A stretch of DNA of 64,000 nt, from NCBI GenBank assembly GCA_965217585.1, contig OZ244561.1, positions 1,280,001 to 1,344,000 of the forward strand. Reading direction: 5' to 3'. Positions 18,998 to 62,964 of the stretch are shown one piece after another. A program made the translations under genes and the position numbers. The notes under the pieces were generated by a model. That model was not told where the DNA came from. It ran no database searches and saw only the letters and a list, made by a program, of their open reading frames with translations. Source of the stretch: Candidatus Latescibacterota bacterium (GTDB lineage: Bacteria; Latescibacterota; UBA2968; UBA8231). How positions within the stretch are numbered: position 1 is the first letter of the stretch; every line of letters starts with the position of its first letter.

Positions 18998-20197
18998 TCA
19001 GTCGGGCTCTGCCTCTAAGAATTCGACAAAACAGGTCGCCGTAACCCTGTCGCGTCCAAGAGTCGGGATCTGAGGTCCAGCGACCGAATCCGCGACAGCA
19101 CGCAGGTCAAGACTGGCCGAGGGCCGCAAACGCCAGCGTTTGACCTGTTCGACTAAGCAATCGCCCACGGGGTCGCTGTCCACAGTAGAAGCGAGGAGCT
19201 GGGCACTTTCGACCAGACCACTGGCCAAGATGACAAAGCGGATGGTCGCGCTGCCTGACAGAGCCCGGCCGGCTTGGAATTCGCCGGCAAAGCAGCGATT
19301 GAAGGCGTCGAGTTGGGAGCGGACAAACGCGTCGATGGTCGCGGGCGTGCGCGCCAGATCGTCTGGGGCATAGCCACTCACCTCGCTGGGTGCCTGCAAG
19401 CGCGCCTGCGTAATAGCGCGCAAGGCTGCTGCTCGGGTCTGGTTGGCCAGCGCCAATTGCTCGATCTGGCGGACGAAGCGAAAGTCCATGTCAAAGGTCT
19501 GCAAAGGCTGGTCAAAGGCGTTGAACTTGAGAATAAAATCCCGGAGGTGTAAACGCACCTCCTCGACCTCGTCGACCAGCGGCTCAAAGACGATAAAGCC
19601 ACTGTAGTTTTCGCCTTTGTAGATTTTCTCCCCGACGCCGTAATTGCTGGTGCGCACCTGCCCCATGCGCATGTCAAAGCGATAGTCCTCATTGCCGGTG
19701 ACGCCTTTCCGAGCGCGGTAGTAGGATTCAAAACTATGGGCCGCCGAGCCGGTCGTCGTGCCGTAGGGGGCCAGTTCCTCTCCCCGGCGGTTGGTCGTGA
19801 GCCGACTCTGTAGCGGTTGTAGTTCCACCTTGGGAAAACCCAGATTGTACACTGAGACCGCAAAGACCGTAAAGCGATTGCGCACGTACCCCGTCTGGGG
19901 ATCGACGTAGTCGCCGTACGTATAGGCATTGTACGAATGCGGCCCCTCGGAGGATTCCTGCGGCCACCGAGCGTTTAGCGCGCGGTCGGTCATGTACCGC
20001 ACCTCGACCCGCAACCCCTCCACGCCATAGGCGATGGTCTCGTCCTCTCCAAGAGTATAGCTCGGCCCTAGATCGGAGCGGGGCACCAGCCGGGATACGC
20101 GCTCGTAGCGCGGCGGATAGAGGAGGGTGCAGCCGGCGAGCAGCAAGGCGCTCCACAGCGGCCATTTACCCCCGGGGACAGCGAGCGAAATACGCAT
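18998..20197 (-). CDS. Lipoprotein: conserved uncharacterised N-domain plus C-terminal TonB-C/AgmX-PglI-like domain
   Basis: Lipobox LLAGC; C-terminus FNRCF...GSATIRFVILASGLVESA...VGDCLVEQVKRW; paralog of 51525-52652. Confidence 0.75.
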   Translation of the reverse strand: MRISLAVPGGKWPLWSALLLAGCTLLYPPRYERVSRLVPRSDLGPSYTLGEDETIAYGVEGLRVEVRYMTDRALNARWPQESSEGPHSYNAYTYGDYVDPQTGYVRNRFTVFAVSVYNLGFPKVELQPLQSRLTTNRRGEELAPYGTTTGSAAHSFESYYRARKGVTGNEDYRFDMRMGQVRTSNYGVGEKIYKGENYSGFIVFEPLVDEVEEVRLHLRDFILKFNAFDQPLQTFDMDFRFVRQIEQLALANQTRAAALRAITQARLQAPSEVSGYAPDDLARTPATIDAFVRSQLDAFNRCFAGEFQAGRALSGSATIRFVILASGLVESAQLLASTVDSDPVGDCLVEQVKRWRLRPSASLDLRAVADSVAGPQIPTLGRDRVTATCFVEFLEAEPD

Positions 20198-20201
20198 GTG
20201 C

Positions 20202-21428
20202 TCAGCGCGCCTGATTGTAAAAATCGATTTGCTGCTGGGCGATGGAACCCTTCTGAGTCAGGGCAAAGACCACCATATTGACTCCTATCTTCAGGTGCGG
20301 TTCGTTTTCGCTTTCGCGCTCCCAGAAGGCACCGTAGCCCTTGTCGGAATACACCGCCACCAGTCGGTCACCGAGGAAAATGCCCTCCAAGTAGTACACC
20401 GATCTGCGGAAATTGCCCCCGGACAATTCCTCGCCCCCGGGGGGCGGGCCATCGTCAAAGTCGAAAAATACGTGGTAGAGCGGATGCTCGTTGGGGATGG
20501 GGACAAAGCGGGCGTCGCGGCCTAGGGCCTGCCTAAACATGTCCCGCAGCGAGGCTTCGGCCGGGCCGTACTCTAGCTCGGGCCGGTCGTTGTCGGCCAC
20601 CAAGAAACCACCGTTGCGCAGGTACTTGCCCAGATTGTCAATTTCGTGCTCGGTCAGTTCAAACGCACTGCGGGTGGTGATGTACACAAAGGGGGCCTTG
20701 AACAGATCCTGTGAGTCGATAAACATCTGGTCGATGACCCGAGCCTCAATGCGAGTGTACTGGTTGATCGCCCGCACCAACTGGGAAATCGAGCGCTGGC
20801 GCGAGGGCTGGAGGATGCTGCCCCAGGCCAGTCCCAAGTACACGAAGCCCTGAATGTTGCGCTTGTCGGCCGGATCCTGAATGACCATGCCCCGGTACTT
20901 GCCGGTGTCAATGGCGGCCAGATCGAGGAATTCCGCCTGCATGTCAATGCGCTTTTCCGGCTCTTTCAGACTGGTCATTTCAACGGCTTCGAACTGGGGG
21001 ACGCCCACCACGCCAAGGCCCATGCCTTGAGCCCCAATGGCGGCGATAAAGTCGCGGCCGCCACGGGTGCGGCTCCACCGTCGGCCCGCAGTGGCCTGGT
21101 CCAGCCGAGCGCCCAGACCGCTGCTGAAGCCGCCTACCACCGTGGCCGTCTGATCCCGCGGCACGGATATAATGGGGGTGCCCTCGGGGATGACCTGCTT
21201 TTTAAAGGCGAATTCCCGACTCAACTGGGGGGGAGGAATGAGCAGCGGCGTGTCCAATTCTTGCCATTCGAGGTGGATGACGACCTCTTCCTCGGCCTGT
21301 TCAACAGGTCGGAAGTACAAGGCGACAAAGACCAAATGCAATACTAATGAGACCAGCAGGCCCCAGTAGAGCAGACGCCGGTTGGCCGCAATAACGGCGA
21401 GCGGATCCGCGGGGCGCACAGCTTTCAC
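20202..21428 (-). CDS. DUF4159-domain protein with N-terminal TonB-like TM anchor
   Basis: TM with SLVLH; Pro-rich linker; DUF4159 motifs PFVYIT, YLRNGGFLVAD, IPNEHPLYHVFFDF, IGVNMVVFALT. Confidence 0.8.
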   Translation of the reverse strand: MKAVRPADPLAVIAANRRLLYWGLLVSLVLHLVFVALYFRPVEQAEEEVVIHLEWQELDTPLLIPPPQLSREFAFKKQVIPEGTPIISVPRDQTATVVGGFSSGLGARLDQATAGRRWSRTRGGRDFIAAIGAQGMGLGVVGVPQFEAVEMTSLKEPEKRIDMQAEFLDLAAIDTGKYRGMVIQDPADKRNIQGFVYLGLAWGSILQPSRQRSISQLVRAINQYTRIEARVIDQMFIDSQDLFKAPFVYITTRSAFELTEHEIDNLGKYLRNGGFLVADNDRPELEYGPAEASLRDMFRQALGRDARFVPIPNEHPLYHVFFDFDDGPPPGGEELSGGNFRRSVYYLEGIFLGDRLVAVYSDKGYGAFWERESENEPHLKIGVNMVVFALTQKGSIAQQQIDFYNQAR

Positions 21429-24667: not shown

Positions 24668-24684
24668 GGTTTGTTCCTCGACAC

Positions 24685-26754
24685 CTAGTAGGCTACTCCG
24701 ACGACCCCGGCGGCGCGTTCTGCGCCCGTGTCCACCTTAACTTCCACTTGGTAGAGGTACAGGCCCGGAGCCACGAGCGAACCAGTGGCATTGCGCCCAT
24801 CCCACAAACCCGGGGCTTGGCCGTCGGTTGGCAGCCACACATAGGCACCGGCCGACAGCGGCGGCGGACTGAGGGCGCGCACCAAGCGTCCGCTCAGATC
24901 GAAGATGCGGATGTCCACCTGCCGCGGGGTCTTGACCTTGGAGAGGGCGAATTCGATAGTGGCAAAATCGTTGACTCCATCGGCGTTGGGACTGAAGACC
25001 GGCGGGCGAGCGCGCACTTGGGCGAGCGTCCTCGCCTCCGAGGTAGCGGCCGACAGCACCCACGAATAAGGTGCATTGCTCTGCGGGTCCATGGCCGCGT
25101 TCTCGGCCGCGTTGAGCGGGTTGTCAGAATTAGGGGCAAACAGGCGGGCGCGAAACGCATGGATCGCCGCGTGGGTTTGGGTCCTAAAGCGAATTTGCAA
25201 CTGGGCGTCTTGTCGCAGAGGCTCGGCCAAGGAGATGGTTAGCTGGTCGCGAGTCGAGTCCCAAGTCTCGATGGCACTGCCTTCCAGGCCGGCGATTCCC
25301 TCGAACATGGCCGGCGCGGGCACGTCGATGCAGATCTGGGCCAAGCCCGCGTCGGCGTCGGCGAATTCCACATCGAGGGTGTAGGTAAAGGCGGTATCCC
25401 GGCCCATGGGGACGCGGTTGGGGGCAATGCGGCCCCACGCTTTAGAGACGGGCACTTGGTCGGCGTCGAAATCGATCTCTAGGTGCTCGAAAACAGGGGC
25501 TTTCTCGGGGGAGCGGGTAGCCATGTTGACCCGATACTGCACGAGCTCACCAGGTTCCTCGGCTGGGAACCAGATGTCTCCGGTGGCTAGGGGCAGGCTC
25601 CAGCCCCCTGCGGAATCGGCTAGATCGGCGCGGCGGAACTGCACAGTGAGTTCCGTGCCAGCGGGAACCGTGGCCTGCCAGCGCACCCGACCTACGTTCT
25701 TGACCACGGCCGGGGCACCGAGGTCGAGCGGCACCGAGGTGAACGTTCCCCGTTCTGCGTGCAGGCTGCCGTACACCTCTATTTCGGCCACGTTTGGCTG
25801 GGTGACGGCATTGATATCGACGACAACCAAGCGCAGATGGCGCGTCCACAGCGGAGCAAAGCGGACCTCGGTGCGGATGAAATCGACAATGTCGCGCAGG
25901 ATCGCCACTTCGGTCCAGCGGATTTGGTCGTCGCTGACCTGAATGGAGTAGCCGCGCAGGGAACGGTCGAAGTACTGCTCCGGGTTGCGACCCCGGGTCA
26001 GGACCCGCACAGCGTGGATTTTGCGCCGCGTTCCCAAGTCGATATCGGCATGGAAATTCAGGGCGTTAATCGGCGGATTCCACGAGGTATTCAAATCGCC
26101 GTCGAGCACCTCCGGGCGATTGGAGATCCGGTCTTTGGCCAAGTTTTGGCCGCGCACTTGTTTGAGGGTAATGCCGCCGGCTAGGGAGCCGATATCCGTC
26201 CCACCTAAAAAGCCGGCGATGGGCTGGCCGACAGACAAAGTCGGATCTAGCGTACCTTCTTGCACCAGGTGCCAAGCCTCGTCCCGCGCCACCTCGGCGG
26301 TCGTCCACCCATCATCGGCCTGGAACTGGGCGCTCCAGTACCAAGGCTGGCGGGTGCGATCGGTCGTCGTTTGGACTGCCGAGGTATCCCCGGCAGCAAA
26401 TTCCACGGTCAAGGTTGCGGCCAAGCCATTGCCGCGACCGCGACCGCGGTTGACCACCAGCGCGGCGATGTGGTTGTCGCCGCGCACCACTGGCACCGCA
26501 AAAACTCGCGGCTGCACCACGCTGGAGTCGCTGCCGACTAGTTCGCCGTTGAAGTACGCGGCAAAGCTGTCGGCTGCGGCCATGCGCAGCAAGCCCTCGC
26601 CAGCTTCGGGCACCGCAAAGGTGGTGCGGTAGTAGAGCGCGTTGCGCCATGTGGTCTGCTCCCAGGTGAGTTCTTCGCTCTGGACGGTGGGGCACACCGC
26701 GGCGAGGCCGACAACGGCGAGCAGGATCCGTTCTTGCAGAGTTGTGGGAATCAT
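24685..26754 (-). CDS. Secreted protein: jelly-roll plus discoidin (F5/8C-like) domains and FSPNADGVND-type CTD
   Basis: ATG 26754 in ATGA overlap; LDGDLNTSW, IDLG, YSIQVSDD..W, AEIEVYG; ends GLYLYQV...VVGVAY; paralog of 60901-62964. Confidence 0.8.
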   Translation of the reverse strand: MIPTTLQERILLAVVGLAAVCPTVQSEELTWEQTTWRNALYYRTTFAVPEAGEGLLRMAAADSFAAYFNGELVGSDSSVVQPRVFAVPVVRGDNHIAALVVNRGRGRGNGLAATLTVEFAAGDTSAVQTTTDRTRQPWYWSAQFQADDGWTTAEVARDEAWHLVQEGTLDPTLSVGQPIAGFLGGTDIGSLAGGITLKQVRGQNLAKDRISNRPEVLDGDLNTSWNPPINALNFHADIDLGTRRKIHAVRVLTRGRNPEQYFDRSLRGYSIQVSDDQIRWTEVAILRDIVDFIRTEVRFAPLWTRHLRLVVVDINAVTQPNVAEIEVYGSLHAERGTFTSVPLDLGAPAVVKNVGRVRWQATVPAGTELTVQFRRADLADSAGGWSLPLATGDIWFPAEEPGELVQYRVNMATRSPEKAPVFEHLEIDFDADQVPVSKAWGRIAPNRVPMGRDTAFTYTLDVEFADADAGLAQICIDVPAPAMFEGIAGLEGSAIETWDSTRDQLTISLAEPLRQDAQLQIRFRTQTHAAIHAFRARLFAPNSDNPLNAAENAAMDPQSNAPYSWVLSAATSEARTLAQVRARPPVFSPNADGVNDFATIEFALSKVKTPRQVDIRIFDLSGRLVRALSPPPLSAGAYVWLPTDGQAPGLWDGRNATGSLVAPGLYLYQVEVKVDTGAERAAGVVGVAY

Positions 26755-27506
26755 TCGTCCACCGCGCAGCGAAAGCCAACATTGCCGTCGGCGCTGAACG
26801 GGCTGCAGGCCCGGCGGTACGAGGCGCGCAACAGATTGGGGGAATTGGACCACGAGCCCCCGCGCACCACCTTCAGCGTTCCATCCGCCGGTCCAGCGAG
26901 ATTGCGCTCGTGTTCGTCGGTATAATATTCGCTGTGATACCAGTCTGCCACCCACTCCCAGACATTGCCGGCCATATCGCTGACCCCATAGGGCGATTCT
27001 CCTTGCGGGTAATGACCCACCGGCGCGGTAAAGGAGTACCCATCGCTGCTGTCGATGTCACAGCAAATATCCGCTCCGTAGTTGGCCCTAGTGCGATCGA
27101 TGTCTTCACCCCAGGGGTAGGTGCGCCCATCGGCCCCCCGGGCGGCTTTTTCCCACTCCGCCTCAGTGGGTAGGCGCTTGCCAACCCACTGACAATAGGC
27201 CACGGCATCGGGCCAACCCACCGAGATGATCGGATGGTCGTCCGGGGCCGACCGGATGGACAGGTTCATCGCTTGGGCATAGGCATTCCACTCGGCCGTG
27301 GTCACTTCGTGGCGGTCAATCCAGAAGCCGTTGAGGTGCACCGAATGTGCGGGGCGCTCATCTCTGGCACCGGAGTCGGAGCCCATGATGAAGGGCCCGG
27401 CCGGGATTTTCACCATGCCCGGTGGGTCCCGGGAGTCTGCCGGTCCCGAGACCTCATCGCAGGCGCTTAGACCGACACTGAGCAACAGGGCTAATACGCG
27501 TTTCAC
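26751..27506 (-). CDS. FGE-sulfatase (SUMF1-like) domain lipoprotein, probably non-catalytic
   Basis: LSAC lipobox; RLPTEAEWEKAARG, DMAGNVWEW, RGGSW, GFRC; lacks the FGE CxxxxC. Confidence 0.9.
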   Translation of the reverse strand: MKRVLALLLSVGLSACDEVSGPADSRDPPGMVKIPAGPFIMGSDSGARDERPAHSVHLNGFWIDRHEVTTAEWNAYAQAMNLSIRSAPDDHPIISVGWPDAVAYCQWVGKRLPTEAEWEKAARGADGRTYPWGEDIDRTRANYGADICCDIDSSDGYSFTAPVGHYPQGESPYGVSDMAGNVWEWVADWYHSEYYTDEHERNLAGPADGTLKVVRGGSWSNSPNLLRASYRRACSPFSADGNVGFRCAVDE

Positions 27507-35978: not shown

Positions 35979-36036
35979 GACAAAGCTCCAAGCGTGGCGT
36001 GCATGGAACGGCAAAGTCGATTCCACCGCGGGCAGA

Positions 36037-38268: not shown

Positions 38269-38271
38269 GGT

Positions 38272-42403: not shown

Positions 42404-42424
42404 TCCTGATTCCTCCTTCTTCAT

Positions 42425-52652: not shown

Positions 52653-52656
52653 CGGC

Positions 52657-55473
52657 TCATTCAAAACCCAAAAATACCCGCATGAACAAAGAGGTGACGT
52701 CGAGGTCGTCTCCGGCGCGGGTGGGATCGTCAAAGGTCCGGCGGGTGAGGCGCAAGCCCACATTGGTCGAGAGCGCATAGCCGAAATAGTTCGAATGATT
52801 GGTCAGTTGCACGACTCGCACGGCCTCGGTAAAACTGTTGCGGTTATCAGTGCGGTCTTTTTTGCTCAGCGGCAAAAAGGGCAGGCCCTGCATCCCGCAG
52901 GAAAATTCAGTGCGCGGCGTCAGCCTATACTGGGCCTTGAGGATGGGGACCAACGTCCACTCGTCCTCCAGCGCGACCGGCAGGCTGTCGCGGTTGCGGC
53001 GCAAGTACAGTCCTTTGCCCTGAAAGACCACTAGCCAGTTCGCCGTAGCTTCCCAGTGGTACGCGACTCGGGATATTAGGGTCAGCAGGCGGATTTCGTC
53101 GGCACCCTGATCCGAACCATCGGACAGCACTGCGGCCTGCTGGCGATTGATGGCATAGCGCATATTGCCGTCCAAACGCAGGCCAGCCAGCGGCCACCAC
53201 GCTCCTTCGAGGTAGTGCTGGCGGTCAATGCTGTCGCGCCACTCGAGCAAATCCCCCACCGTAGTGCGGTCGTACACTAGGGACCCGGGGCTGTGGTACG
53301 GGGCATCGGGAGCGGGTTCCGACAGGGTTTCTTCAAAGGTCTGGTACGGGTTGGCAAAGTCGTCGTGAACGCGCTGCAAGAACATCTCGCCGGCAAAATA
53401 GCCCCACTGCCCATCGCGGCGCGGCAGGGCAATGCTGGCGTAGTCAATATCGTTGCGCCGCTCGCTAAGAATGCCTTTGGCCTTGAGCCGCCCCACCCCA
53501 ACAGACCAGCCGCCGGGCAGGCGCAGCCGACCGAAGACGTGACCGCCTCGCTGGTCCTGCTGGTAGGGCAGATCGGGTTCTAGGTCGTCCTCGCGCACAT
53601 CGGCGATGCCGTTGTGGTTCCAGTCGCGGCCGTAGAAGTACACGTCCGGTTCCACTGCAAAGAGCAAAAAAGGCTCGACGTAATCGGGTAGGGCATTGCC
53701 ATTGCGATTGGTATCGGGAATGCCGTCGTTGTCCGCGTCGTTGCCGGGGAAGACCCCGTCTGGGTCGTAGTCGGTCGCGCCGTGGTGGCCGCCCCGCGCT
53801 CCGGGACCCCGGTCGGGCCAGCGGTCGTTGTCGTCGTTGTCCTCGACAAAGCCGTCGGAGATCTCGGCTCCCGGCACCGCGGCTACGTGGTCGCCGATCA
53901 ACTGACGGGTGAAATCCGGCCCCACCGAGAACAATTCACCCCCCAATTCGAGATAGGAGCTAGCCCACTCCGCAGTCAGATAGTACGAGGCGTCCCGGGT
54001 GGTGCTGCGCGCTCCGTTCCACTGGCGCACGCCCTCGAATTCCCTCGGGGGGCGATGTCCGGGCCGGCCGTCTGGATAGCGCAAGTACTCAATGCTGCGG
54101 GCGAATTCCCCGCGAATGCGGGTGCGACCTCTTTCAAAGTAGCCGTCAACGCCAACCACGGTGCGGCCGGTCCAAGCTCCGGCGTCGAGGCGAATCTGCG
54201 TCGCATTGGACAGATCTTGGACATTGCCCGGGGCGCGGCGCAGCGATTCGAGGTTGGCCAAGCGCCAGCGCGCCTGTTCCTGGGTGGCCTGGGGTTCGGC
54301 TTCGTACAGGCCGACCAGCTCCACCCGGTAGTCGTTGCCCACCACGGCTTCCACCTCGACCTGCTCGACAAAATACTCCTCGGTCAGATCAAAAAAGGCC
54401 AGAATGACATCGTAGCCATCGGCGCGCAATTCAGCGTCCGCCTCAATGGGCACAATAAAGTTCACCAGTTCGCCGAGATTGACGTTGCGGGAGACATCCT
54501 CGCCCTGCAAGTGGCGGCGCAGGTAGAAAAAATCCGCATAGCGCGTGCCTTGGTCGGTGTACGGACGCCGCTGAAACTGTCCGGTGAGTCGATTGTTGAG
54601 GCCCACGGCCGTGGGATTGCGGGCGTCAATGCGCACCAACTCGGGCGCAATATCCGGCCGGTACTCGCCGTTGATCAGCAGGCGCACCGCGGAAATAGCA
54701 GCGCCAGCGCGCTCGTCGCCGGGGGAATCGTCGGCAAAGCGCGCAATGATAAAACTGGGCAAAACTTGGTCCCCGCGCAGATCGCCTCGGAGGGAAAAAT
54801 CGCCCTGCGCGCTGTCGAAGAGATTGAAGTGGACGCCAGTGGCCCCCAAGGTGAGAGCGCCCAGGTGCAATTCGCCGCGTCCGCCCGTGAGCAGGGAGGC
54901 ATTGCGCGCTTCTGATCGCGGAGTGCCGGCCACCCAGATGGGGTCGCGGAAGCGCGAGGCCAACAGCGAGAATTGGGTCGGCCCTTTGTCGACGTCGAGG
55001 CGGACCCCGTTGACGCCAGTCATATCGAGGGTCAGGGGCGTAAAAAAGGTGCGGATCTCGTCGCCGATGATCAGCCGGGCGGACCAGTCGCTGTAACTGT
55101 CGAAGCCGACGATATTGCGGTCCAGCAGCCCATAGCGCGCGTTCTGCTTGAAGAGCTGGCTGTTGGGCGCTTGGCCAATGGGGAAGTCGGCGCGCGTCTC
55201 CCGCCACGAAAACACGTCGTACCCGTAGATCAGGTGATGGCCGAGCGGGCCGTAGTAATTGCGCCGATCAAAGGGTGGCAGCAGGGTCTGATCCGGGATC
55301 TCGTAGTCCGTTTGCGCGCGGTTGACGTATGGGCGGCCGGGTCGGTGGACGAAGGGGTGGGCCGGGAGAAAGGTCGGCACCCCGGCCCGGGGGCCGGACT
55401 CCTCGGCTTCGAGCCCTAAAAATGGGAGGGCCGGCAAGAGGAGCAAGCATCCCATGCCAATGGCTGCTCTCAT
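52657..55473 (-). CDS. Barrel-like family paralog 2
   Basis: FTPLTLD, DDSPGD, RAPGNVQDLSN, VEDNDDNDRWPD...PDYVEPFL...PDLPY; ends LFMRVFLGFE. Confidence 0.7.
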   Translation of the reverse strand: MRAAIGMGCLLLLPALPFLGLEAEESGPRAGVPTFLPAHPFVHRPGRPYVNRAQTDYEIPDQTLLPPFDRRNYYGPLGHHLIYGYDVFSWRETRADFPIGQAPNSQLFKQNARYGLLDRNIVGFDSYSDWSARLIIGDEIRTFFTPLTLDMTGVNGVRLDVDKGPTQFSLLASRFRDPIWVAGTPRSEARNASLLTGGRGELHLGALTLGATGVHFNLFDSAQGDFSLRGDLRGDQVLPSFIIARFADDSPGDERAGAAISAVRLLINGEYRPDIAPELVRIDARNPTAVGLNNRLTGQFQRRPYTDQGTRYADFFYLRRHLQGEDVSRNVNLGELVNFIVPIEADAELRADGYDVILAFFDLTEEYFVEQVEVEAVVGNDYRVELVGLYEAEPQATQEQARWRLANLESLRRAPGNVQDLSNATQIRLDAGAWTGRTVVGVDGYFERGRTRIRGEFARSIEYLRYPDGRPGHRPPREFEGVRQWNGARSTTRDASYYLTAEWASSYLELGGELFSVGPDFTRQLIGDHVAAVPGAEISDGFVEDNDDNDRWPDRGPGARGGHHGATDYDPDGVFPGNDADNDGIPDTNRNGNALPDYVEPFLLFAVEPDVYFYGRDWNHNGIADVREDDLEPDLPYQQDQRGGHVFGRLRLPGGWSVGVGRLKAKGILSERRNDIDYASIALPRRDGQWGYFAGEMFLQRVHDDFANPYQTFEETLSEPAPDAPYHSPGSLVYDRTTVGDLLEWRDSIDRQHYLEGAWWPLAGLRLDGNMRYAINRQQAAVLSDGSDQGADEIRLLTLISRVAYHWEATANWLVVFQGKGLYLRRNRDSLPVALEDEWTLVPILKAQYRLTPRTEFSCGMQGLPFLPLSKKDRTDNRNSFTEAVRVVQLTNHSNYFGYALSTNVGLRLTRRTFDDPTRAGDDLDVTSLFMRVFLGFE

Positions 55474-58142
55474 CCTTTGAACGGCTCCAATCCCATGACT
55501 AGGCGCATGAAAAACAGGACTTGGTCAATGTCTTCGACCTGGCGCGAGCGGTCGTCGAATTGCAGTTGTTTGCGTTGGTAGCCCGTGCTCAGACTGAGGT
55601 GGTAGCCCTTGTAGGTCGTCCTATTGGTCACCATGACCACGTAGTCCTCGGCTCCATAGTTGACGGCGCTGTTGACGCGATCGCGGTACCTGCTTTTGAG
55701 CAAGGGCAGACCCTGGGCACCAGCGCTGAAGCGGGTCATGGGCGTGAGATCGTACGTCGCGGTCAGGATCGGATAGAAAAAGCGCTCTGAAATGGGCCGT
55801 ACCCGATCGCTGCGATCGCGCCGCACAAAGCCCATGTACTTGATGCGGGGCGTCACCGTCAAGCTACCCACATTCCAGTTATACGCCGCTCTCAACACCC
55901 AGGACCAAGCACCGATCTGATTGGCGGGTTGTAGGGATGTGGGACGCTGGAAATTGACGCTGTACTTGAGGCGCTGGTCGATATTGAGGTTGTCGATGCG
56001 GAAGAAGGTGGCCTTGAGATAGGCCGTGTTGACCAAGCTATTGCGCATGGCCAATTCGTCCTCGACTAGTTCAAAATTATCGACATTGGCGTCAAAGGTG
56101 CCCCGCACCTCAAAGGGCAGGGCATTGGAGATGCGCGGCAAAAATTGCGGGGTGTCGTCCGCAATGTCGTCTTGCACCTGCTTGCAAACATTGAAAAACT
56201 CCACGCGGCCGTACGGGAAAAGGGAGCGCTGATAGGCCGCTTTGAAATAGGAGACGCGGTTTTCCCCCGCGCCCCAGATCTGGCGCGTGTGGTAGCGCCC
56301 CAAGGTGAATTCAAGTCCGCTGCGAGGGCGCAGGCCGGCGAACAGGTGATGGCCTTGGCTATCGACATCATAGGGATAATCGGGCTCGAAGTCGTCCTCC
56401 CGATGGTCGATGATGCCGTTGTTGTCGAGGTCGTCGCCGTAGTCGTATTCGGGCGGATCAACGCGGTAGAGCAGGAAAGGCTCGAGGTAGTCGGGAGCCG
56501 TGTTGCCGTTTTCGTTGGGATCGGGCTGGCCGTCCTGATCGAGGTCGAGGCCGGGAAAAATGCCGTCGTTATCGGCAAAATTCGGCAGGAAGTGCGCGTC
56601 GGGGAAGCGGTCGCGGTCGTCGTTGTCGTCTACCGTGGACAATTCGAGGGTGTTGTTGTAGCGCTCGTCAAAGCTCGGAAAGACGCTGAAGGGACTGCGC
56701 AGATCCTCGGTGTAGGTGCGATAATTCCGGTCCTCGACGGAAATGCTAGTGCTGTACTGGGGCGCCATGCGGAAGACCTCAAAGCCGAGACTGGCGCGGT
56801 GCCAATCCCGGGTGGCATTGACAAAAAAGGCGTCGGCCGTGCGGCGCTGCCACTTGCCGTCCCCGGCGTGGGAGGGATACTGGCGAAATTCAAAGGTGCG
56901 GGCGAACTCAGTGCGCAGGGAGAAATCCCGGCGCTGCACTTCGAGACGCAGGCTGGCATTGGTGCGACCCGTGTGGCGGCCGTACTCAAAGTCCACCCAG
57001 CGCCGGTTGGAGCCGTCGCGCACTTGCCCCTCGGCCGCGATTACCGGATAGAAAAAGGTGGCGCGTTCGCCGGTTATATTGACATTGGCCGATGAAGTAG
57101 TCGCGGCCGGAAGAAAGACTTCGGCCATTTCAATGCGGTAGTCATTGGCCACCAGCCCGCGAAAGCGCAAGCGCTCGACCTGCCCCCGCATTTCCTGGGG
57201 AATTTTGAACCAGTAGAGCAAAAACTCCGAGCCATTGGCCTCGAGAAATTCACCTTGCTCGGCCGGCTCCACGACCAGATCTCCCCGGAGAAACTCGATA
57301 TACGGCGGTATGGTCTTGCCCAGGGGAAAGAAGCGGTCGCGGTTGGGATAGGTTCTATCGATCTGCTCGCTATCGTGGCGAGTGACGAGCGGGCGGATGG
57401 CGCCGAGCGTCCCTTCGATATGCAGGTCGTAGATCCGGGCCCCGCCGCCATCCTTGGGCGAACCATCGCCGAACTTGACCACCACGTAGGCCGGCGGCGT
57501 GTTCTTGCGCGGCACCACGCCCTTGATGCTATTGTCGCCCCACGCGGTCAGGCTGTTGGTGCGGTGCAAGTTGACATACGAAAAACTCAAGTCCAGCACC
57601 CCAAACTTGCGCTGGACGTGGCCGCCGAGCAGGTAGGTGGCCCAATCCCTAGCTCCGTGCAGTTCGAGATTATCCCCTGGGAAGATGGGCCAGTCGAGGC
57701 GCGACGTGACAAAGGAAAATTGGCTGCCATCGACATCGGCGTCCCAGCGGGCGCCGTTGAGCGCGACTAGGTCGAGGGTGAGGGCGGTGAATTTGGTGCG
57801 GATGCGGTCGCCGACGATCAGCCGGCTGCTCCAGTTGCCATAGCTGTCCTGGGCCACGAGCAGGCGATTGAGGTACTGCTGATAAAAGCGGCTCTTGTCG
57901 ATAAAGCTACCCGATTCGGGCGGATTGGTTCGCCCTTCCTCCAATTCAAAGACGCCGACCCCGTCGAGGACAAAGTTGCCCAAATCGTCGTACCTATTGC
58001 GCGTGACTTGGCCAAATATCCCCGAGTTGTACGCGCGGTACCCCTGGCGGGCATAGCTCTCATAGCGCTCCTCGGCATCGTAAAGCAATTGCCCAAAAGC
58101 GGGCGCGGACCAAGCCAAGACGACGAGGAAGAGGACCATCAC
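55470..58142 (-). CDS. Barrel-like family paralog 3
   Basis: Probable GTG/ATG start at 58142/58139 after GAGGGG; FTALTLD, DGSPKDG, VRDGSN, VDDNDDRDRFPD...PDYLEPFL...PDYPY; ends FFMRLVMGLEPFKG. Confidence 0.7.
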   Translation of the reverse strand: MMVLFLVVLAWSAPAFGQLLYDAEERYESYARQGYRAYNSGIFGQVTRNRYDDLGNFVLDGVGVFELEEGRTNPPESGSFIDKSRFYQQYLNRLLVAQDSYGNWSSRLIVGDRIRTKFTALTLDLVALNGARWDADVDGSQFSFVTSRLDWPIFPGDNLELHGARDWATYLLGGHVQRKFGVLDLSFSYVNLHRTNSLTAWGDNSIKGVVPRKNTPPAYVVVKFGDGSPKDGGGARIYDLHIEGTLGAIRPLVTRHDSEQIDRTYPNRDRFFPLGKTIPPYIEFLRGDLVVEPAEQGEFLEANGSEFLLYWFKIPQEMRGQVERLRFRGLVANDYRIEMAEVFLPAATTSSANVNITGERATFFYPVIAAEGQVRDGSNRRWVDFEYGRHTGRTNASLRLEVQRRDFSLRTEFARTFEFRQYPSHAGDGKWQRRTADAFFVNATRDWHRASLGFEVFRMAPQYSTSISVEDRNYRTYTEDLRSPFSVFPSFDERYNNTLELSTVDDNDDRDRFPDAHFLPNFADNDGIFPGLDLDQDGQPDPNENGNTAPDYLEPFLLYRVDPPEYDYGDDLDNNGIIDHREDDFEPDYPYDVDSQGHHLFAGLRPRSGLEFTLGRYHTRQIWGAGENRVSYFKAAYQRSLFPYGRVEFFNVCKQVQDDIADDTPQFLPRISNALPFEVRGTFDANVDNFELVEDELAMRNSLVNTAYLKATFFRIDNLNIDQRLKYSVNFQRPTSLQPANQIGAWSWVLRAAYNWNVGSLTVTPRIKYMGFVRRDRSDRVRPISERFFYPILTATYDLTPMTRFSAGAQGLPLLKSRYRDRVNSAVNYGAEDYVVMVTNRTTYKGYHLSLSTGYQRKQLQFDDRSRQVEDIDQVLFFMRLVMGLEPFKG

Positions 58143-58173
58143 AGTACGCACCCCTCGATAAAAATAGATCGTC

Positions 58174-58203
58174 CCATCTGCGCCCATCTGCGTCCATCTG
58201 CGG
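58174..58203. repeat. Three 10-bp tandem units CCATCTGCGY (REP-like half element)
   Basis: ccatctgcgc ccatctgcgt ccatctgcgg in the intergenic gap. Confidence 0.75.
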
Positions 58204-58209
58204 ATAACA

Positions 58210-60897
58210 TCACAGCACCCGCGCCTGAACGAAAAATTCTTTGAACTTGCGCACTCTGCGCCCAGGACTATGCACAAAGCGGGTGTAGCTAGCGCGAAAA
58301 CCCAAATTGAGACTGAGATCGAATCCCCGGTTGTGGCTGCGGTTCTCAATGGCCAAAAGATAGTGGCGGGCCGTGAAATCCCCGGTCCGGTACTCTTCGT
58401 TGCGAAAGGTGTGCGGCCAGCCCGGCAAGCCCTGAATGCCAAAGCGCAGCACCGTGGCTTGGCCCAGTGCGTAGTCCGCCTGCAGGATGGGGAACAGTTC
58501 ATACGTGCGGAGCGGCAATAGCAGGTCGTCGGGGGCGGTGCGGCGCTGGAGCCTCAGTTTGGCACTGGGGCGGATTTTCAGGCCCTGCCGCACAAAGGTG
58601 TAATCCGCCTTGCTGGTCCAAGTCCAGTCGATAATATGGCTGCGCTGGTCTAGCGTCTCCAACATGCGGTTGATTTCGAGCTTAGTGGTGGCTTTGACCT
58701 GCACCCTGGGGATGGACGCGTATCCCGCGGTGCCGTACAGGGTGTGGAGCCAGCTATTTTGCGCCAGCAGTGGATCGGGTTTGATTTTGATCGCGGTATT
58801 GGTCGCGGTCAGCGGATCGACGACGTGCTGGTACACTGGATCGGCGATGGTATCGCGCACCCGCTTACTGCGCACATTGAGTTGCAGGTGCCCCCTCTGG
58901 TATTGCGCCTCCCCGTACGCGACTTGGTTGCGACCGGCGCCAGCGCGCTGTGCAATGCGGTACTGCCCGAGGCGGAATTGCAAGGATGAGCGGGGGCGGA
59001 AAAGGGCGAATGAATGGTACCCACGGCTGTCGAGCGGATAGGGGTAGTCCGGCAGATTGTCGTTTTCGCGCCGATCCACTACGCCGTTGTTGTTGAAGTC
59101 GTCGCCGTACACAAAATCGTCTGGTTCAACGGCGTACATGAGGAAGGGCTCGGCGTAGTCGGGTATCTGGTTCTGGTTGACATTAATCTCCAAGACCCCG
59201 TCTCCATCTTGGTCCAGCCCGGGAAAAACGCCGTACCCAACGCCATTGCCGAGGTTGCCGGGCAGGTAGTCAATGGCGGCCTGGGTCGGCTGGCCCTCCG
59301 GGTCCACGCCGGCGGCATTTTTTAGGCTGATGTAGAGTGGGTCGAGCGGATCCCAGTGTTCCCAGCGGTCCTCCCAGTAGTCGCCGTCGTCGTTGTCATC
59401 GACCAGCGCGTAGTCCAATACCTTGTCGGCGCGTTCCGACCACATGGGCAGGGTGGTGGCGTACGCGGCCGGCAGGCGAAACACCTCGACGCCGACTGCG
59501 AGGCTGTCGATCTGGTGCAGCCCCTTGAGGAAAAAGGCCCGGCTGGCGCGGCGCTGGTGCTGGTTGGCACCGGGAAAGCGGCGGTACCCGACGTTTTCGA
59601 CCAACTCGCCCGCAAGAGTCGTCCCCTCCCATTGCCAGAGAAAGTCGCTGCCGTAGTGAATTTGGGCGGTCGGGAAGCCGTATTCAAAACGCACCCAGCG
59701 CAAGTTGGAGCCGTCCCGGACATTGTGCGGCGCGCGCGCGACATTGTGCCAGTCGGTCCAGATGCGATTGGGCACGCCGTCCCAGCCGTAGGTCGCCGCC
59801 ACGTCAATACTATAGTCGCCGGCCACTTGGGCGCGAAAGCTCAGGCGCTCGGCCGTGGCTGGAATTTCGCAGCGATAGACCAGCAAATCGGTGCCGCCCA
59901 CTTCGAGGGGAAACTCCGCTGCTGCAACGGGCAGACCCTCCTGGAAAAAGAGGCCGCGTTCCTGGCGTCGGTTGTTGAGCCGGGGATCGAAGACTCGGTC
60001 GAGCGGTACGCTCTGCGGGGCCCAGGGTCCGTGGCGGCGCAGATGGGGGATGTGGTCCGGGTCGGCGAGGCGCGGGATGCGCCGAATATCCGGCGCGATC
60101 GGGATCGGTGCGCCATCGACAAAAATTTCCATGGCCAGCACTTGCACGCCGCTGTCATCCTCGGGGGAATCGTCGCTGAAAACCACGTAGTAGAAGGTGG
60201 TCTTGGCCAGATCTGTGGGAAAGGTGCCGCGCGTCGAGCCCCGGCGCTGCATGCTATCGCGCAGATGCAGATTGACGTACGAACCGCCGATGGTCAGCGC
60301 GTTGCCCAGCCGGCTTTCCCAGCGGCCGCCGAGCAGATAGGTGGCAAACGGGAGATTGTTGGCACCGCCGACTAGGGGCGAGGAAACCCGGGCGCCCAGT
60401 ACGGTAAAGCGATTCTTGTAGGAAGAACCATCCCAGCGCAGCCCCTGCAGGCGCGCCTTGTCGAGAGTCAGCGGCGTGAAGCGGGCCTCGAGGGCGTCGC
60501 CGACCATGACCCGGGCCGACCAGTCGCGGTAGTGATCGCGCATGATGACCAAGTTGCGAAAGGTGGCCGCTAGATGGCCGCTGCGGAAAATTCGGCTGCT
60601 GCGCTGGGGTGCCAGAGTGCGGTATTCCTCCACGCGCAGCAACTCCACCCCGTCGAGCAGATAGGCCCCAAAGGGGTCGTAGGTCGGGTTATCGGGGCGG
60701 GCCGTGTAGTCCCGGTAACTGAGCAGGCTGTAGTTTTCGTAGCGCTCGTGCCACCAAGGATAGTACTCGCGGTTGAGGAAACGGGACTGGGCCCGGCTCC
60801 AGGGCAGGTACTCGGTGGTGGTGAGTTGGCCTCCTGCCCGGTCCCAAGCGATGACGCAGAGCAGCGCGGCCAGCCTAATGATCGGGAGGCCCCTCAT
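58210..60897 (-). CDS. Barrel-like family paralog 4
   Basis: FTPLTLD, DDSPEDD, RAPHNVRDGSN, VDDNDDGD...PDYAEPFL...PDYPY; ends FFVQARVL. Confidence 0.7.
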   Translation of the reverse strand: MRGLPIIRLAALLCVIAWDRAGGQLTTTEYLPWSRAQSRFLNREYYPWWHERYENYSLLSYRDYTARPDNPTYDPFGAYLLDGVELLRVEEYRTLAPQRSSRIFRSGHLAATFRNLVIMRDHYRDWSARVMVGDALEARFTPLTLDKARLQGLRWDGSSYKNRFTVLGARVSSPLVGGANNLPFATYLLGGRWESRLGNALTIGGSYVNLHLRDSMQRRGSTRGTFPTDLAKTTFYYVVFSDDSPEDDSGVQVLAMEIFVDGAPIPIAPDIRRIPRLADPDHIPHLRRHGPWAPQSVPLDRVFDPRLNNRRQERGLFFQEGLPVAAAEFPLEVGGTDLLVYRCEIPATAERLSFRAQVAGDYSIDVAATYGWDGVPNRIWTDWHNVARAPHNVRDGSNLRWVRFEYGFPTAQIHYGSDFLWQWEGTTLAGELVENVGYRRFPGANQHQRRASRAFFLKGLHQIDSLAVGVEVFRLPAAYATTLPMWSERADKVLDYALVDDNDDGDYWEDRWEHWDPLDPLYISLKNAAGVDPEGQPTQAAIDYLPGNLGNGVGYGVFPGLDQDGDGVLEINVNQNQIPDYAEPFLMYAVEPDDFVYGDDFNNNGVVDRRENDNLPDYPYPLDSRGYHSFALFRPRSSLQFRLGQYRIAQRAGAGRNQVAYGEAQYQRGHLQLNVRSKRVRDTIADPVYQHVVDPLTATNTAIKIKPDPLLAQNSWLHTLYGTAGYASIPRVQVKATTKLEINRMLETLDQRSHIIDWTWTSKADYTFVRQGLKIRPSAKLRLQRRTAPDDLLLPLRTYELFPILQADYALGQATVLRFGIQGLPGWPHTFRNEEYRTGDFTARHYLLAIENRSHNRGFDLSLNLGFRASYTRFVHSPGRRVRKFKEFFVQARVL

Positions 60898-60900
60898 ACG

Positions 60901-62964
60901 CTAGTAGACCACGGCCACGTGGCCGCTGTGGACCTCGTCCCCTGCATCTAGCTCCACCTTGACCTGAAAGAGATAGAGACCCGGGGGCACTACGTTGCCA
61001 TGATCATTGCGGCCGTCCCAATAGCCGGGGCTTTCGCGCTCCCGGCCAGACAGGCGCAAATAGGTTCCCGCGCTCAGAGCCGGAGGCCGGAGCCGGGCCA
61101 CAAGGCGGCCGCTCAAGTCGAAGATGCGCATGGATACCGGGCGCGCCACATCCACTCTGGAGAGGACTAATTCGATCACCGTGGCGTCGTTGATACCATC
61201 GCCGTTGGGCGAAAATATCGGCGGATTGGCCCGCACCTGTTCGAGGACTTGGCCAGCAACCGTGGTCGTGACCAACGTCCACGAATGGGGCCTTTGGGTG
61301 CGCGGATCTTCGTCTTGGTTGGGCGCGGCGTTGAGCGGATTTTCCGAGCCTAAGCTGAACAGGAAAGCGCGGAACCGGTGCAGGTGGGCATAGGAGCGAG
61401 TGCGGAAGGGGATCTGCAACTGGGTGCTTTGCCGCAGGGGCTCGGCGAAAATCAAGGTGAGCAAGTGCTGGGTGGAAAACCACTCGGCCAGTACAGCAGT
61501 CCCCAAGTCGATATCCCGGCCGAGCTGGGCCTGTCCGGGCACGGCTATTTGCAAGCTTTTGACCCCCTGATCGCCGGTGCCGATCTCCACGTCGAGGGTA
61601 TAGACAAAGGTGGTATCCACGCCCATCGGCGTCCGGTTGGGCTCGACGCGACCACGGGCCGTGGACGCGGCTATATCCTCGGTAGAATACTCGATGCTCA
61701 GGTCGCGAAAAAGAGGGCTTTTCTCCGGGTCTCGGCTCTCCATATTGACGCGGTACTGCAAAAACCGTCCGGGTTCGGGGCCGGGAAAGAGGATTCCTCC
61801 AGCGACCTGCGGAGCGCTCCAGCCTTCTTGGGGATCGGCAAAAGCGGCCGGGGTGGCACCGCTGCGAAACTGGACCGACAGGTCCGTGCGCAGGGGAATG
61901 TCTGCATGCCAAGCGATGCGGCCGAAATTCTTGCGCCTGTCCGGTGCTCCCAAATCCAGCGGTGCGGAAAGAAACACTCCCTCCTCGGCAAAACCCTCGC
62001 CAAAGACCTGGATCTCCGCGACCTTGGGTTGGCTCACGCCATTGACGTCGATGATGACAATGCGCACGAACCGGGTCCAAGTCGGATTGAAGACCACTTC
62101 GGTGCGCTCGAACTGGAGGATATCGTGCAAAACCCCCACCTCGGACCAGCGGATTTCGTTGTCGCTGACTTGCACGGAATAGCCCTGTAGGGAATTCTGG
62201 GCGAATTCAGGCCCTTCGGTCAGCACCCGCACGGACCGGATCCGTCGGCGTTGTTGCAAATCGATGGAGGCAGCAAAATTGACCGAGGATACGGGCGGTT
62301 CCCAAGCAGTGCGCAAATCGCCGTCCACGGCTTCAATGCGATTGGAGGGCCGCCCTAAAGCCAAGTTCTCACCGCGTATTTGCTTGAGAACCACGCCGCC
62401 GGCCACGCCGCCAATATCCGTGCCACCGGGAAAACCAGCGACTAGGTCCGGGGCCGGGTCGGGCAAGCCCTCGATCAGGGCGCGATTGGCGCTGCCAGCC
62501 TGGACCACCTGCCAGCCCAGTTGCTCCGCGATATCGGCTACTTGCCAGTCGGTGTCGGCCGGGGGGCGGGCGGTCCAGTACCAAGTCTGGGCTTTGGGGT
62601 CGGTCTCGCCGTAGCGCAGGGAATCGACCGCGACCACGGCCAGCAGGCCATGGCCCACGCCCAAACCGCGATTAACCACCTCGACGGCCAGGGCGTTATC
62701 ACCGCTGAGCACGTTGACTGGGTAGGTGTGCATCTGGTTCCAAGACGAATTGGCCCCGATGAAGACGCCGTTGAAATAGACCGCAAAACTGTCCACCGCG
62801 GCAATGTGGAGCAGCCCCGAGGTACTGCTGTCGGCCGCAAAGGTGGTGCGGTAGTACAGGGTATTGCGATAGGTGTCCTGGGTCCAGACCTCGGCGCCGC
62901 TCCCACCCGGAAGCATTAGCAGGAGGCAGGTGACCAACCCGGATCTGATATGGGCTCGGGCCAT
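60901..62964 (-). CDS. Secreted jelly-roll plus discoidin protein with FSPNGDGIND-type CTD (paralog of 24685-26754)
   Basis: YRNTLYYRTTF, VDGDLRTAW, YSVQVSD, AEIQVFG; ends GHVAVVY. Confidence 0.85.
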   Translation of the reverse strand: MARAHIRSGLVTCLLLMLPGGSGAEVWTQDTYRNTLYYRTTFAADSSTSGLLHIAAVDSFAVYFNGVFIGANSSWNQMHTYPVNVLSGDNALAVEVVNRGLGVGHGLLAVVAVDSLRYGETDPKAQTWYWTARPPADTDWQVADIAEQLGWQVVQAGSANRALIEGLPDPAPDLVAGFPGGTDIGGVAGGVVLKQIRGENLALGRPSNRIEAVDGDLRTAWEPPVSSVNFAASIDLQQRRRIRSVRVLTEGPEFAQNSLQGYSVQVSDNEIRWSEVGVLHDILQFERTEVVFNPTWTRFVRIVIIDVNGVSQPKVAEIQVFGEGFAEEGVFLSAPLDLGAPDRRKNFGRIAWHADIPLRTDLSVQFRSGATPAAFADPQEGWSAPQVAGGILFPGPEPGRFLQYRVNMESRDPEKSPLFRDLSIEYSTEDIAASTARGRVEPNRTPMGVDTTFVYTLDVEIGTGDQGVKSLQIAVPGQAQLGRDIDLGTAVLAEWFSTQHLLTLIFAEPLRQSTQLQIPFRTRSYAHLHRFRAFLFSLGSENPLNAAPNQDEDPRTQRPHSWTLVTTTVAGQVLEQVRANPPIFSPNGDGINDATVIELVLSRVDVARPVSMRIFDLSGRLVARLRPPALSAGTYLRLSGRERESPGYWDGRNDHGNVVPPGLYLFQVKVELDAGDEVHSGHVAVVY

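Follow-up and report, generated by a model that had tools for sequence, protein, structure and literature searches.

The 64,000-nucleotide stretch of DNA analysed here (the window) is bases 1280001-1344000 of the single 7.32-Mb contig of a Latescibacterota genome that is 94.6% complete. Its region 18998-62964 contains 22 large genes and one small open reading frame (ORF), and an initial annotation had read these ~45 kb as one undescribed secretion or surface-display system. We find that the region consists of copies of two conserved module types and of loosely linked genes, and is not one 45-kb machine; what stands of the earlier claim is that the recurring families form functionally linked, co-inherited modules. 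Both module types combine predicted giant outer-membrane β-barrels with lectin-like proteins that share a C-terminal domain (CTD), or tail, resembling that of type-B cargo of type IX secretion systems (T9SS). Our favoured explanation, to which we give an even chance, is that T9SS-exported type-B-like lectins dock on barrels of their own that replace PorP/SprF, in loci that resemble polysaccharide utilisation loci (PULs).

Two conserved module types

Module I, of which the genome holds about 40 copies, contains a barrel, three lectin-like tail proteins (CTD11, CTD13 and CTD15), a CBM9-fold protein (U311) and a SurA-like lipoprotein peptidyl-prolyl isomerase (PPIase). The order is U311 - CTD11 - CTD15 - barrel - CTD13 - PPIase, frequently joined by another barrel and by a gene fusing PMT_2 to tetratricopeptide repeats (TPR) that abuts a barrel; the window copy occupies 34032-49695. 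Module II contains one to three barrels, one lectin (CTDa), the TPR protein TPR03, a DUF4159 protein with a membrane anchor and the TonB_C-like lipoprotein TonBC, in the order CTDa - BAR22 - BAR21 - BAR20 - TPR03 - DUF4159 - TonBC, as at genome positions 7032182-7050486 and 4380122-4397207. Reduced one-barrel forms also exist in the genome, and in some families of the phylum module II is single-copy. The window copy, at 49816-62964 plus 18998-26955, is rearranged, split and partly duplicated, with g23-g22-g21-g20-g19 at 51525-62964 and g04-g03-g02-g01 at 18998-26754.

Both arrangements recur in other genomes. A barrel profile run against 1.84 billion cluster representatives gave 1130 matches at E<=1e-3 and 384 at E<=1e-30. 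Among the candidates scored, 1086 barrel relatives reached E<=1e-3; the best 120 are all without Pfam domains, and those with a name are each a “hypothetical protein” of Latescibacteria or Handelsmanbacteria metagenome-assembled genomes. For synteny we took the loci of the best 77 of 639 relatives from a scan with one genome per species, many of them truncated by contig ends, whose depositor titles read Latescibacter* (62), Gemmatimonad* (13), Handelsmanbacteria (1) and Bryobacterales (1, on a 4.7-kb contig). These 77 loci hold CTD15 in 68 cases, CTD13 in 65, CTD11 in 60, the PPIase in 54, U311 in 53, ASPIC proteins in 22 and TonBC in 6, and their commonest order is PPIase-CTD13-barrel-CTD15-CTD11-(barrel)-U311. 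Module II was followed in the 20 kb around TonBC matches in 17 genomes from four families of the phylum, where TonBC is present by construction and three loci come from one genus; TPR03 and DUF4159 are each found in 15/17 and a barrel in 16/17, in the order barrel(s)-TPR03-DUF4159-TonBC. BAR21-type barrels adjoin TPR03 in other families of the phylum, and the orthologous order BAR22-BAR21-BAR20 is kept in other copies in the genome.

All presence/absence searches covered the same 151 Latescibacterota genomes, which are related and so not independent. Barrels occur in 95 of them, including 63/63 of the genome's own family; most genomes of the remaining families are positive, while two other families of the same class, with genomes 91-100% complete, have none (0/30 and 0/19). 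U311 is matched in 92/95 barrel-positive and 1/56 barrel-negative genomes, the single case being marginal (E 8.5e-9), and the TonBC N-domain in 92/95 and 0/56. The tail model matches every genome, and its best E is <=1e-17 in 93/95 barrel-positive and 0/56 barrel-negative genomes (lowest there 1.1e-15), a separation whose weight is lessened by a threshold picked after the data were seen and by the relatedness of the genomes. Barrels, U311, TonBC and this type of tail co-occur almost perfectly, in a pattern that spans several families, and do not occur independently of each other, as the initial annotation had allowed they might.

Within the genome, the window proteins were searched against all stop-to-stop ORFs of at least 80 aa. 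This returned 79-80 barrels, 169-228 paralogs per tail protein, 43 PPIases, 41 paralogs of g14 (U311), 59 ASPIC proteins, 24 TonB_C-like lipoproteins, 19 DUF4159 proteins, 14 FGE proteins and 6 GDSL-TPR proteins. The barrel genes form 50 clusters, and the core-family ORFs amount to 727 kb or 9.9% of the genome (3.0% for barrels alone), coverage that is slightly high because it was taken from stop-to-stop lengths. Linkage was scored as lying within 10 kb of a barrel gene, for which the baseline is ~17% of the genome. The fractions so linked are CTD15 42/44, CTDa 9/10, TonBC 22/24, U311 32/37, PPIase 32/40, CTD13 45/57, CTD11 43/60, DUF6785 37/78, DUF4159 8/18, ASPIC 24/57, FGE 5/14 and GDSL-TPR 5/6, and the roughly nine full-length TPR03 paralogs all lie beside barrels. 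Owing to their weak linkage, the FGE and the CRTAC1-like (ASPIC) lipoproteins are not counted as core parts. The FGE lipoproteins, which the initial annotation had likened to GldK/PorK, score 121.6 (g05) and 74.4 bits (g07) against a GldK cut-off of 350, and the likeness was dropped; FGE and GDSL genes flank module II in 3/17 loci, all of one genus.

The weak linkage of ASPIC, FGE and DUF4159 genes is what would be expected if the region held unrelated exported proteins, brought together by chance from large paralogous families in a 7.3-Mb genome. That there is no functional link at all is nevertheless extremely improbable, with gene order kept in the 77 + 17 loci of other genomes and presence and absence matching almost perfectly over 151 genomes; for the core families, synteny and co-occurrence refute it.

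The genes of the region are as follows, with window coordinates, strand and family scores.

18998..20197 (-), g01: module II lipoprotein with an N-domain of no known family and a TonB_C/AgmX-PglI-type C-terminal domain; lipobox LLAGC in the translation
20202..21428 (-), g02: module II DUF4159 protein with one N-terminal membrane helix; PF13709 115.5 bits
21425..24667 (-), g03 (TPR03): module II exported TPR protein of 1080 aa with YbgF/BamD-like repeats
24685..26754 (-), g04 (CTDa): module II lectin-like protein with type-B-like CTD; F5_F8_type_C 38.2, CHU_C 28.8 bits
26751..27506 (-), g05: FGE-domain lipoprotein, loosely linked; PF03781 218.6 bits
27503..29569 (-), g06: GDSL-like acylhydrolase fused to TPR, loosely linked; Lipase_GDSL_2 43 bits
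29566..30429 (-), g07: FGE-domain lipoprotein, loosely linked; PF03781 156.8 bits
30407-30793 (-): small ORF of 128 aa between FGE and ASPIC genes; “lipo-invert” 22.6 bits, under the cut-off of 37
30861..32657 (-), g09: FG-GAP/ASPIC (CRTAC1-like) lipoprotein, loosely linked; FG-GAP_3 165.3, UnbV_ASPIC 72 bits
32647..34158 (-), g10: TPR lipoprotein matching many TPR families
34032..36059 (-), g11 (CTD11): module I lectin-like protein; CHU_C 35.7, FlgD_ig 30.1 bits, weak F5_F8_type_C; likely start ATG 35978
36037..38268 (-), g12: PMT_2 (GT-C type) membrane glycosyltransferase-like protein fused to TPR, a frequent barrel neighbour; PMT_2 37.8 bits
38272..41304 (-), g13 (CTD13): module I lectin-like protein of 1010 aa; F5_F8_type_C_2 27.1, CHU_C 20.7 bits (under the gathering score of 27)
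41489..42424 (-), g14 (U311): module I exported CBM9-fold protein of 311 aa, with a conserved His as first mature residue
42825..45224 (+), g15 (CTD15): module I lectin-like protein directly upstream of a barrel; CHU_C 29.8, FlgD_ig 33.6 bits
45257..47983 (+), g16 (BAR16): module I predicted outer-membrane β-barrel of 908 aa, unnamed family
47980..49695 (+), g17: module I lipoprotein with two PPIC-type rotamase domains, SurA/PrsA-like; Rotamase_2 60, Rotamase 37.4 bits
49816..51525 (-), g18: FG-GAP/ASPIC lipoprotein, loosely linked; FG-GAP_3 172.5, UnbV_ASPIC 65.4 bits
51525..52652 (-), g19: module II TonB_C/AgmX-type lipoprotein; NF033768 53.3 bits
52657..55473 (-), g20 (BAR20): module II barrel
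55470..58187 (-), g21 (BAR21): module II barrel
58210..60897 (-), g22 (BAR22): module II barrel
60901..62964 (-), g23 (CTDa): module II lectin-like protein directly upstream of BAR22; F5_F8_type_C 44.7, CHU_C 30.5 bits

The gene-level description in the initial annotation proved accurate. The ORFs lie at the positions it gave, and a base-by-base check bore out seven stop/start overlaps, with starts at 21428 (GTG), 26754 (ATG), 27506 (GTG), 29569 (ATG), 47980 (ATG), 51525 (ATG) and 55473 (ATG), each overlapping the upstream TGA stop by 4 nt, or by 1 nt at 51525. A CTD gene stands directly upstream of a barrel gene twice, at 45224->45257 (32-nt gap) and 60901<-60897 (3-nt gap). Pfam and NCBIfam identify DUF4159, PPIC rotamase, FGE-sulfatase, FG-GAP_3 with UnbV_ASPIC and, in the 1080-aa TPR protein, repeats of YbgF and BamD type. 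The paralog sets listed in the initial annotation are true paralogs in BLASTP among the window proteins: full-length identity is 25-32% among the four barrels (BAR20 27-32% to the other three), and identity is 48% for g01 and g19, 55% for g09 and g18, and 28% for g05 and g07. The kinship of the five tail proteins extends far past the tail (51% over 670 aa for g04/g23, 37% over 359 aa for g11/g15), and four of the five contain F5/8 type C (discoidin) domains by Pfam and NCBIfam. ORFs similar to the small one at 30407-30793 recur in 2/77 related loci.

RNA libraries from three coded studies contain contigs that are 95-99% alike to the window and partly cover U311 (with word depth reaching 549) as well as CTD15, the barrel and the PPIase; such contigs mark presence in an RNA library, which is weak support for transcription and not proof of it, and uncovered parts are no sign of silence.

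The shared tail and the giant barrels

The type-B likeness begins with the last ~100 residues of the lectin-like proteins. Four of the five window tails exceed the Pfam gathering score of 27 for CHU_C (28.8, 35.7, 29.8 and 30.5 bits), with g13 at 20.7. All five end at the stop codon, and N-terminal signal peptides are readable in the translations. Every one of 42 aligned orthologous CTD15 tails matches CHU_C, and also FlgD_ig, at E<=0.01; invariant in this alignment are P-N-G-D-x-x-N-D, a Trp, P-G-x-Y and a terminal Tyr. A model built from five tail sequences finds 199 ORFs in the genome that end in the domain, the domain end lying no more than 10 residues from the ORF end. The PNGDG.ND-type motif is present in 129 of these 199, of which 125 end in Tyr and 109 lie within 10 kb of a barrel, compared with 17.6% of the genome, a proximity far above chance. 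In a sequence search against solved structures with g15, g13, g14, g19 and the DUF6785 protein, the best E was 0.012, to FlgD and on the tail.

In Bacteroidota, type-B cargo pairs with a PorP/SprF barrel encoded beside it, examples being SprB-SprF, Fjoh_3952-Fjoh_3951 (Flavobacterium johnsoniae) and PG1035-PorP (Porphyromonas gingivalis) (PMC12618676; PMC9143113). The modules follow a similar logic, as the initial annotation had suggested. They share with the type-B arrangement a C-terminal immunoglobulin-like (Ig-like) domain of ~100 residues with an FTPNGDG.ND-type motif and, in four of the five window tails, a score over the CHU_C gathering threshold, a cargo gene beside a dedicated barrel gene, many such pairs per genome, and SprA and PorU in the genome. 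They differ in the barrel, which here has ~900 residues, at least 24 strands and an unnamed family, compared to ~300 residues for PorP/SprF, for which neither TIGR03519 nor PF11751 finds a match in this genome. They also differ in containing up to three cargo proteins and two barrels, plus the CBM9-fold protein and PPIase, in tails that mostly end in Tyr (125/129) and fall under the TIGR04131 cut-off, in GldKLMN going undetected, and in belonging to Latescibacterota and not Bacteroidota.

The barrels, 895-938 residues long in the window, have no match in Pfam or NCBIfam even at E<=5 and no family in the PDB. An AlphaFold2 (AF2) model of g16 built with 49 sequences (pLDDT, the predicted local distance difference test, 72.8; pTM, the predicted template modelling score, 0.67) contains at least 24 strands, each 9-17 residues long, with a small β domain inserted at about 280-400. 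Foldseek against the PDB ranks MtrB (6r2q_B, E 1e-10), Deinococcus SlpA, LptD, FimD and TonB-dependent receptors at the top, with template modelling (TM) scores of 0.14-0.32. A structure search independent of Foldseek returned membrane β-barrels only, with porins at Z 13.2 (root-mean-square deviation, rmsd, ~5 Å over ~217 residues) and SprA (6h3i_A) at Z 11.0. While the initial annotation had considered that the ~900-aa proteins might fold as soluble enzymes, every good structural match is an outer-membrane barrel, and the model indicates large outer-membrane barrels without a specific solved relative. In the ESM Atlas, the barrel and g19 meet only clusters without a name, which carry the labels Latescibacterota or Gemmatimonadota; the named clusters closest to them, DUF6029 (0.89) and TonB_C (0.85), are leads only.

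Two parts of g16, at residues 30-109 (an aromatic-rich N-segment) and 540-640 (acidic and rich in Asp/Asn), are the most conserved and the worst modelled (pLDDT 27-60). The second carries DxDxD/NG-like repeats and most of the family's invariant residues, and both are candidate partner- or calcium-binding sites. When barrel residues 98-908 were modelled as a complex with the CTD15 tail, the score was 0.00 with no controls, and the result counts neither way.

Two named barrel families were considered and set aside. PorP/SprF is not matched by sequence at E<=5 and differs in length (~300 compared to 895-938 residues). A TonB-dependent transporter of the SusC type would show PF07715 or PF00593, and neither matches at E<=5 in a scan that does detect the true receptor at 16369-18894; the structures of such transporters are only weak generic barrel matches to the g16 model. 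The best fold matches, MtrB (6r2q), LptD/LptE, the FimD usher and Deinococcus SlpA, share the 24-30-strand size class, whose members usually need a plug or inner partner. They are nonetheless distant (TM-scores 0.14-0.32, identity 6-12%), and no cytochrome, LptE-like or pilin genes accompany the barrels here.

The size shared with ushers, LptD and MtrB leads to the main rival of the T9SS-cargo reading. It is possible, though in our view unlikely, that the modules are a self-contained export or assembly pathway that uses no T9SS, with the barrel as translocator or usher for the tail proteins, the SurA-like lipoprotein as dedicated chaperone and module II as the trans-envelope part. The chaperone-type gene in 54/77 loci, the tight adjacency of tail genes and barrels, and the conservation of module II as a unit with a membrane anchor and periplasmic scaffold are consistent with such a pathway. 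The barrels, however, show no usher or TpsB likeness beyond the generic barrel fold, the modules contain no ATPase or other energy source, and the tail belongs to the T9SS sorting-domain family.

T9SS components and the weighing of the readings

Whether the genome encodes a T9SS bears directly on this choice, and the initial annotation had held its system to be distinct from T9SS, proposing a search for sprA, porV and gldK-N. SprA is encoded at G000:C1:3679708-3685083 of the genome studied here, in one 2153-aa frame scoring 604.8 bits (483.5+116.5; cut-off 200), and PorU within 578110-582436 at 627.5 bits (cut-off 420), directly beside a PorV-like gene. Fifty further ORFs match PorU's own C-terminal domain. 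With four of five window tails over the CHU_C gathering score and these components elsewhere in the genome, the claimed distinctness from T9SS was not supported. Across the phylum, SprA is found in 146/151 genomes, including all the barrel-negative families, and in 91/95 barrel-positive genomes, which again stands against an export pathway without T9SS. This distribution suggests a T9SS shared across the phylum, to which the modules seem to add an accessory layer.

Several observations weigh against T9SS export and docking, in addition to the tail threshold described above. The window tails reach only 18.6-27 bits with TIGR04131 (cut-off 35), with g13 unmatched; because of this and because FlgD_ig is matched about as well as CHU_C, the tail could be a related Ig-like domain with another use. 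The PorV-like gene, at 153.8 bits, is under its cut-off of 250. GldL, GldM and GldN gave no NCBIfam match, nor any match to the Pfam GldM domains, and the best GldK match is the window's FGE protein at 80.6 bits (cut-off 350), in searches run without a positive control; with none of GldK/L/M/N detected, a canonical motor-driven T9SS is not demonstrated. The T9SS here may lack the canonical motor and ring, or these parts may be too diverged to detect. Four of the barrel-positive genomes have no SprA match; three are 64-80% complete, while the fourth, G015, reaches 96%. No relationship between the giant barrels and PorV/PorQ-like barrels was detected, hhalign against four from the phylum giving a probability of 0.7%. 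Among the 11 annotated families of recurrent neighbours there is no glycoside hydrolase. Lastly, the surface location, docking, glycan binding and transport of the module proteins are inferred.

Some of these same observations favour a self-contained pathway, namely that GldKLMN and PorP/SprF go undetected in the genome and that G015 has barrels without a SprA match. G015 has barrel and TonBC matches and no match to SprA or U311, and could separate the modules from the T9SS. A further distribution was examined and dropped. PF11751 is weakly matched (20-28 bits) in 29 genomes, 25/56 barrel-negative and 4/95 barrel-positive (0/63 of the genome's own family), which resembled a complementary distribution of PorP/SprF and the giant barrels; both of the two hits tested belong to the PorV/PorQ family (NF033709 171.9 and 84.8 bits).

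In the T9SS-cargo reading that we favour, Sec would export all components, many as lipoproteins, as read from their sequences. The lectin-like proteins, with discoidin/CBM32-type domains and a CHU_C-family Ig-like tail, would then cross the outer membrane via the SprA encoded elsewhere and dock on the adjacent barrel, which would take the role that PorP/SprF has for type-B cargo in Bacteroidota. The barrel is proposed as the docking partner because it adjoins and co-occurs with the tail proteins and because no PorP/SprF gene was detected. The SurA-like lipoprotein PPIase may chaperone the barrel or the cargo, and the surface complexes together with the CBM9-fold protein would bind glycans, with the barrel possibly passing substrate inward. 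Module II would add a periplasmic scaffold made of the giant YbgF/BamD-like TPR protein, the DUF4159 anchor and the TonB_C-like lipoprotein, and it may be the ancestral form of the system, or its assembly or coupling form.

Components, neighbours and biological meaning

The TonB_C-like lipoproteins and TPR03 of module II suggest yet another reading, an adhesion or gliding-type apparatus or surface layer in which lectin-like adhesins anchored on the barrels serve attachment to the surfaces of hosts or particles without uptake, and module II resembles the Glt complex or Tol-Pal. With the AgmX/PglI tail model NF033768 (cut-off 40), g01 scores 48.8 bits and g19 53.3 bits, and there are partial matches to GltG and GltE. 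TPR03 carries YbgF-type repeats, SlpA-type S-layer barrels are among the fold matches of g16, and type-B cargo in Bacteroidota is described as mostly adhesins (PMC12618676). We consider this reading quite unlikely, as the equivalog scores are far under cut-off (GltG 22-25 against 650 bits, GltE 49-60 against 225) and ~50 diverged clusters with variable enzyme- and transporter-like neighbours form the pattern of substrate-specific loci and not of a motility machine. The same scores led us to reject module II as the Myxococcus Glt machinery. Compared with Myxococcus Agl-Glt and with Tol-Pal/CpoB, module II likewise co-encodes a TonB_C/AgmX-type domain, YbgF/BamD-type TPRs and outer-membrane barrels, while its TonB_C-like protein is a lipoprotein without a TonB-type anchor or Pro-rich linker, and no motor genes are present. 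g01 and g19 are not TonB, with Pfam TonB_C at 13.1-18.6 bits (gathering score 24.6) and a lipobox in place of the membrane anchor. TPR03 matches TIGR02795 (YbgF) at 210.9 bits in four stretches and TIGR03302 (BamD) at 132.8 bits; these scores exceed the cut-offs, but they are spread over four separate stretches of 1080 residues, a likeness at the level of repeats, and TPR03 was rejected as a BamD or CpoB orthologue.

U311 has no Pfam match at E<=5, so its CBM9 assignment is by fold and not by sequence. The AF2 model (pLDDT 79.9) superposes on 185/189 residues of 1i82_A (VIA Z 20.9, rmsd 2.5 Å), followed by 4jpq (Z 16.7), and Foldseek returns 7nwo (E 2.6e-9); DOMON-type haem subunits (2ivf_C, 7b04_C) reach Z ~11 and the next unrelated folds no more than 7.5. 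Its His28 is the first residue after the predicted signal cleavage site (A-x-A|H), and is invariant in 39/39 aligned orthologues and present in 30/32 genome paralogs, 29/32 of which also conserve a second histidine, H134. An N-terminal histidine is a hallmark of histidine-brace copper sites, which the U311 terminus may recall, as a lead only.

The neighbours of the barrels vary. Within 8 kb we find DUF6785+DUF6784 polytopic proteins (30), PhyH dioxygenases (15), WD40 proteins (13), sulfatases (7), Gfo/Idh/MocA oxidoreductases (7) and enolase-superfamily enzymes (5); NCBIfam gave no match for five recurrent unnamed neighbours or for DUF4159. The DUF6785+DUF6784 membrane protein has 78 paralogs in the genome and at least 10 hydrophobic segments, with no PDB or NCBIfam relative, as at G000:C1:5084581-5086842 (L100). 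The PMT_2-TPR protein directly abuts a BAR16-type barrel in at least five modules (for example 4242690-4244924 and 2224840-2227131) and could glycosylate surface proteins from the periplasmic side.

SusC/SusD polysaccharide utilisation loci of Bacteroidota number dozens per genome and combine a barrel of ~900-1000 residues with surface glycan-binding proteins and variable enzymes. The modules are alike in forming dozens of diverged loci with a large barrel, glycan-binding-type surface proteins, and enzymes or inner-membrane proteins nearby. They differ in having no Plug or TonB_dep_Rec domain and no SusD, in surface proteins with a secretion tail and not a lipid anchor, in the missing glycoside hydrolase among the annotated neighbours, and in that uptake is here a proposal. 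We read the ~50 clusters as a putative functional counterpart of PULs because of their domain types (discoidin, CBM9-type), their amplification and their enzyme and membrane-protein neighbours. A bolder version would make them a third surface-capture architecture of ~50 substrate-specific modules. In it, a T9SS without GldKLMN would export lectins that are fixed to a giant barrel acting as import channel, module II would be a trans-envelope hub or energy coupler, and U311 would be a metal-binding (histidine-brace-like) redox partner instead of a plain lectin. We regard this as speculative and improbable.

Outside the region, the window holds further candidates for export. An ORF running off the window end at 63093-63998 (-) carries a type-A T9SS tail (TIGR04183 30.1 bits, cut-off 23; FlgD_ig 45.4 bits), so type-A and type-B-like tails coexist in the genome. 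Large exported proteins at 7719-10202 (-) and 11433-15953 (-), one a 1506-aa leucine-rich repeat/fibronectin-III protein, end in PPC and FlgD_ig-type domains and are probably further T9SS cargo; the long opposite-strand ORFs at 7065-9650 and 12213-15698 look spurious. Upstream of the modules are two adjacent type I phosphodiesterase/nucleotide pyrophosphatase-family genes at 1394-5588 (-) and the canonical TonB-dependent receptor (Plug and barrel) at 16369-18894 (-).

In the literature covered, which did not extend to subscription journals and supplements, we found no description of the modules, of the barrel family or of a T9SS in Latescibacterota, and the families map to no system already described. 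[quoted passage not shown] In the available part of a paper on sponge Latescibacterota the terms secretion, outer membrane, FlgD, ASPIC and FG-GAP are absent (PMC12993501), and DUF6785, DUF6784 and DUF4159 are named only in the Pfam paper within the literature searched. New here are the scale (79-80 barrels and roughly one tenth of the genome), the recognition of module II as a conserved unit, the pattern of presence and absence across the phylum, the demotion of the FGE and CRTAC1-like genes, and the CBM9 fold and N-terminal histidine of U311.

The modules take up about one tenth of a 7.3-Mb genome with proteins that are unnamed in Pfam, NCBIfam and the PDB. If the favoured explanation is true, it would explain how a widespread uncultured phylum meets its substrates, and the type-B cargo and partner-barrel logic of the T9SS would reach beyond Bacteroidota with a new barrel family. 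What energises SprA when GldKLMN go undetected would then become a question as well. The two families of the same class that keep SprA and have no modules are natural controls for comparative and metaproteomic work.

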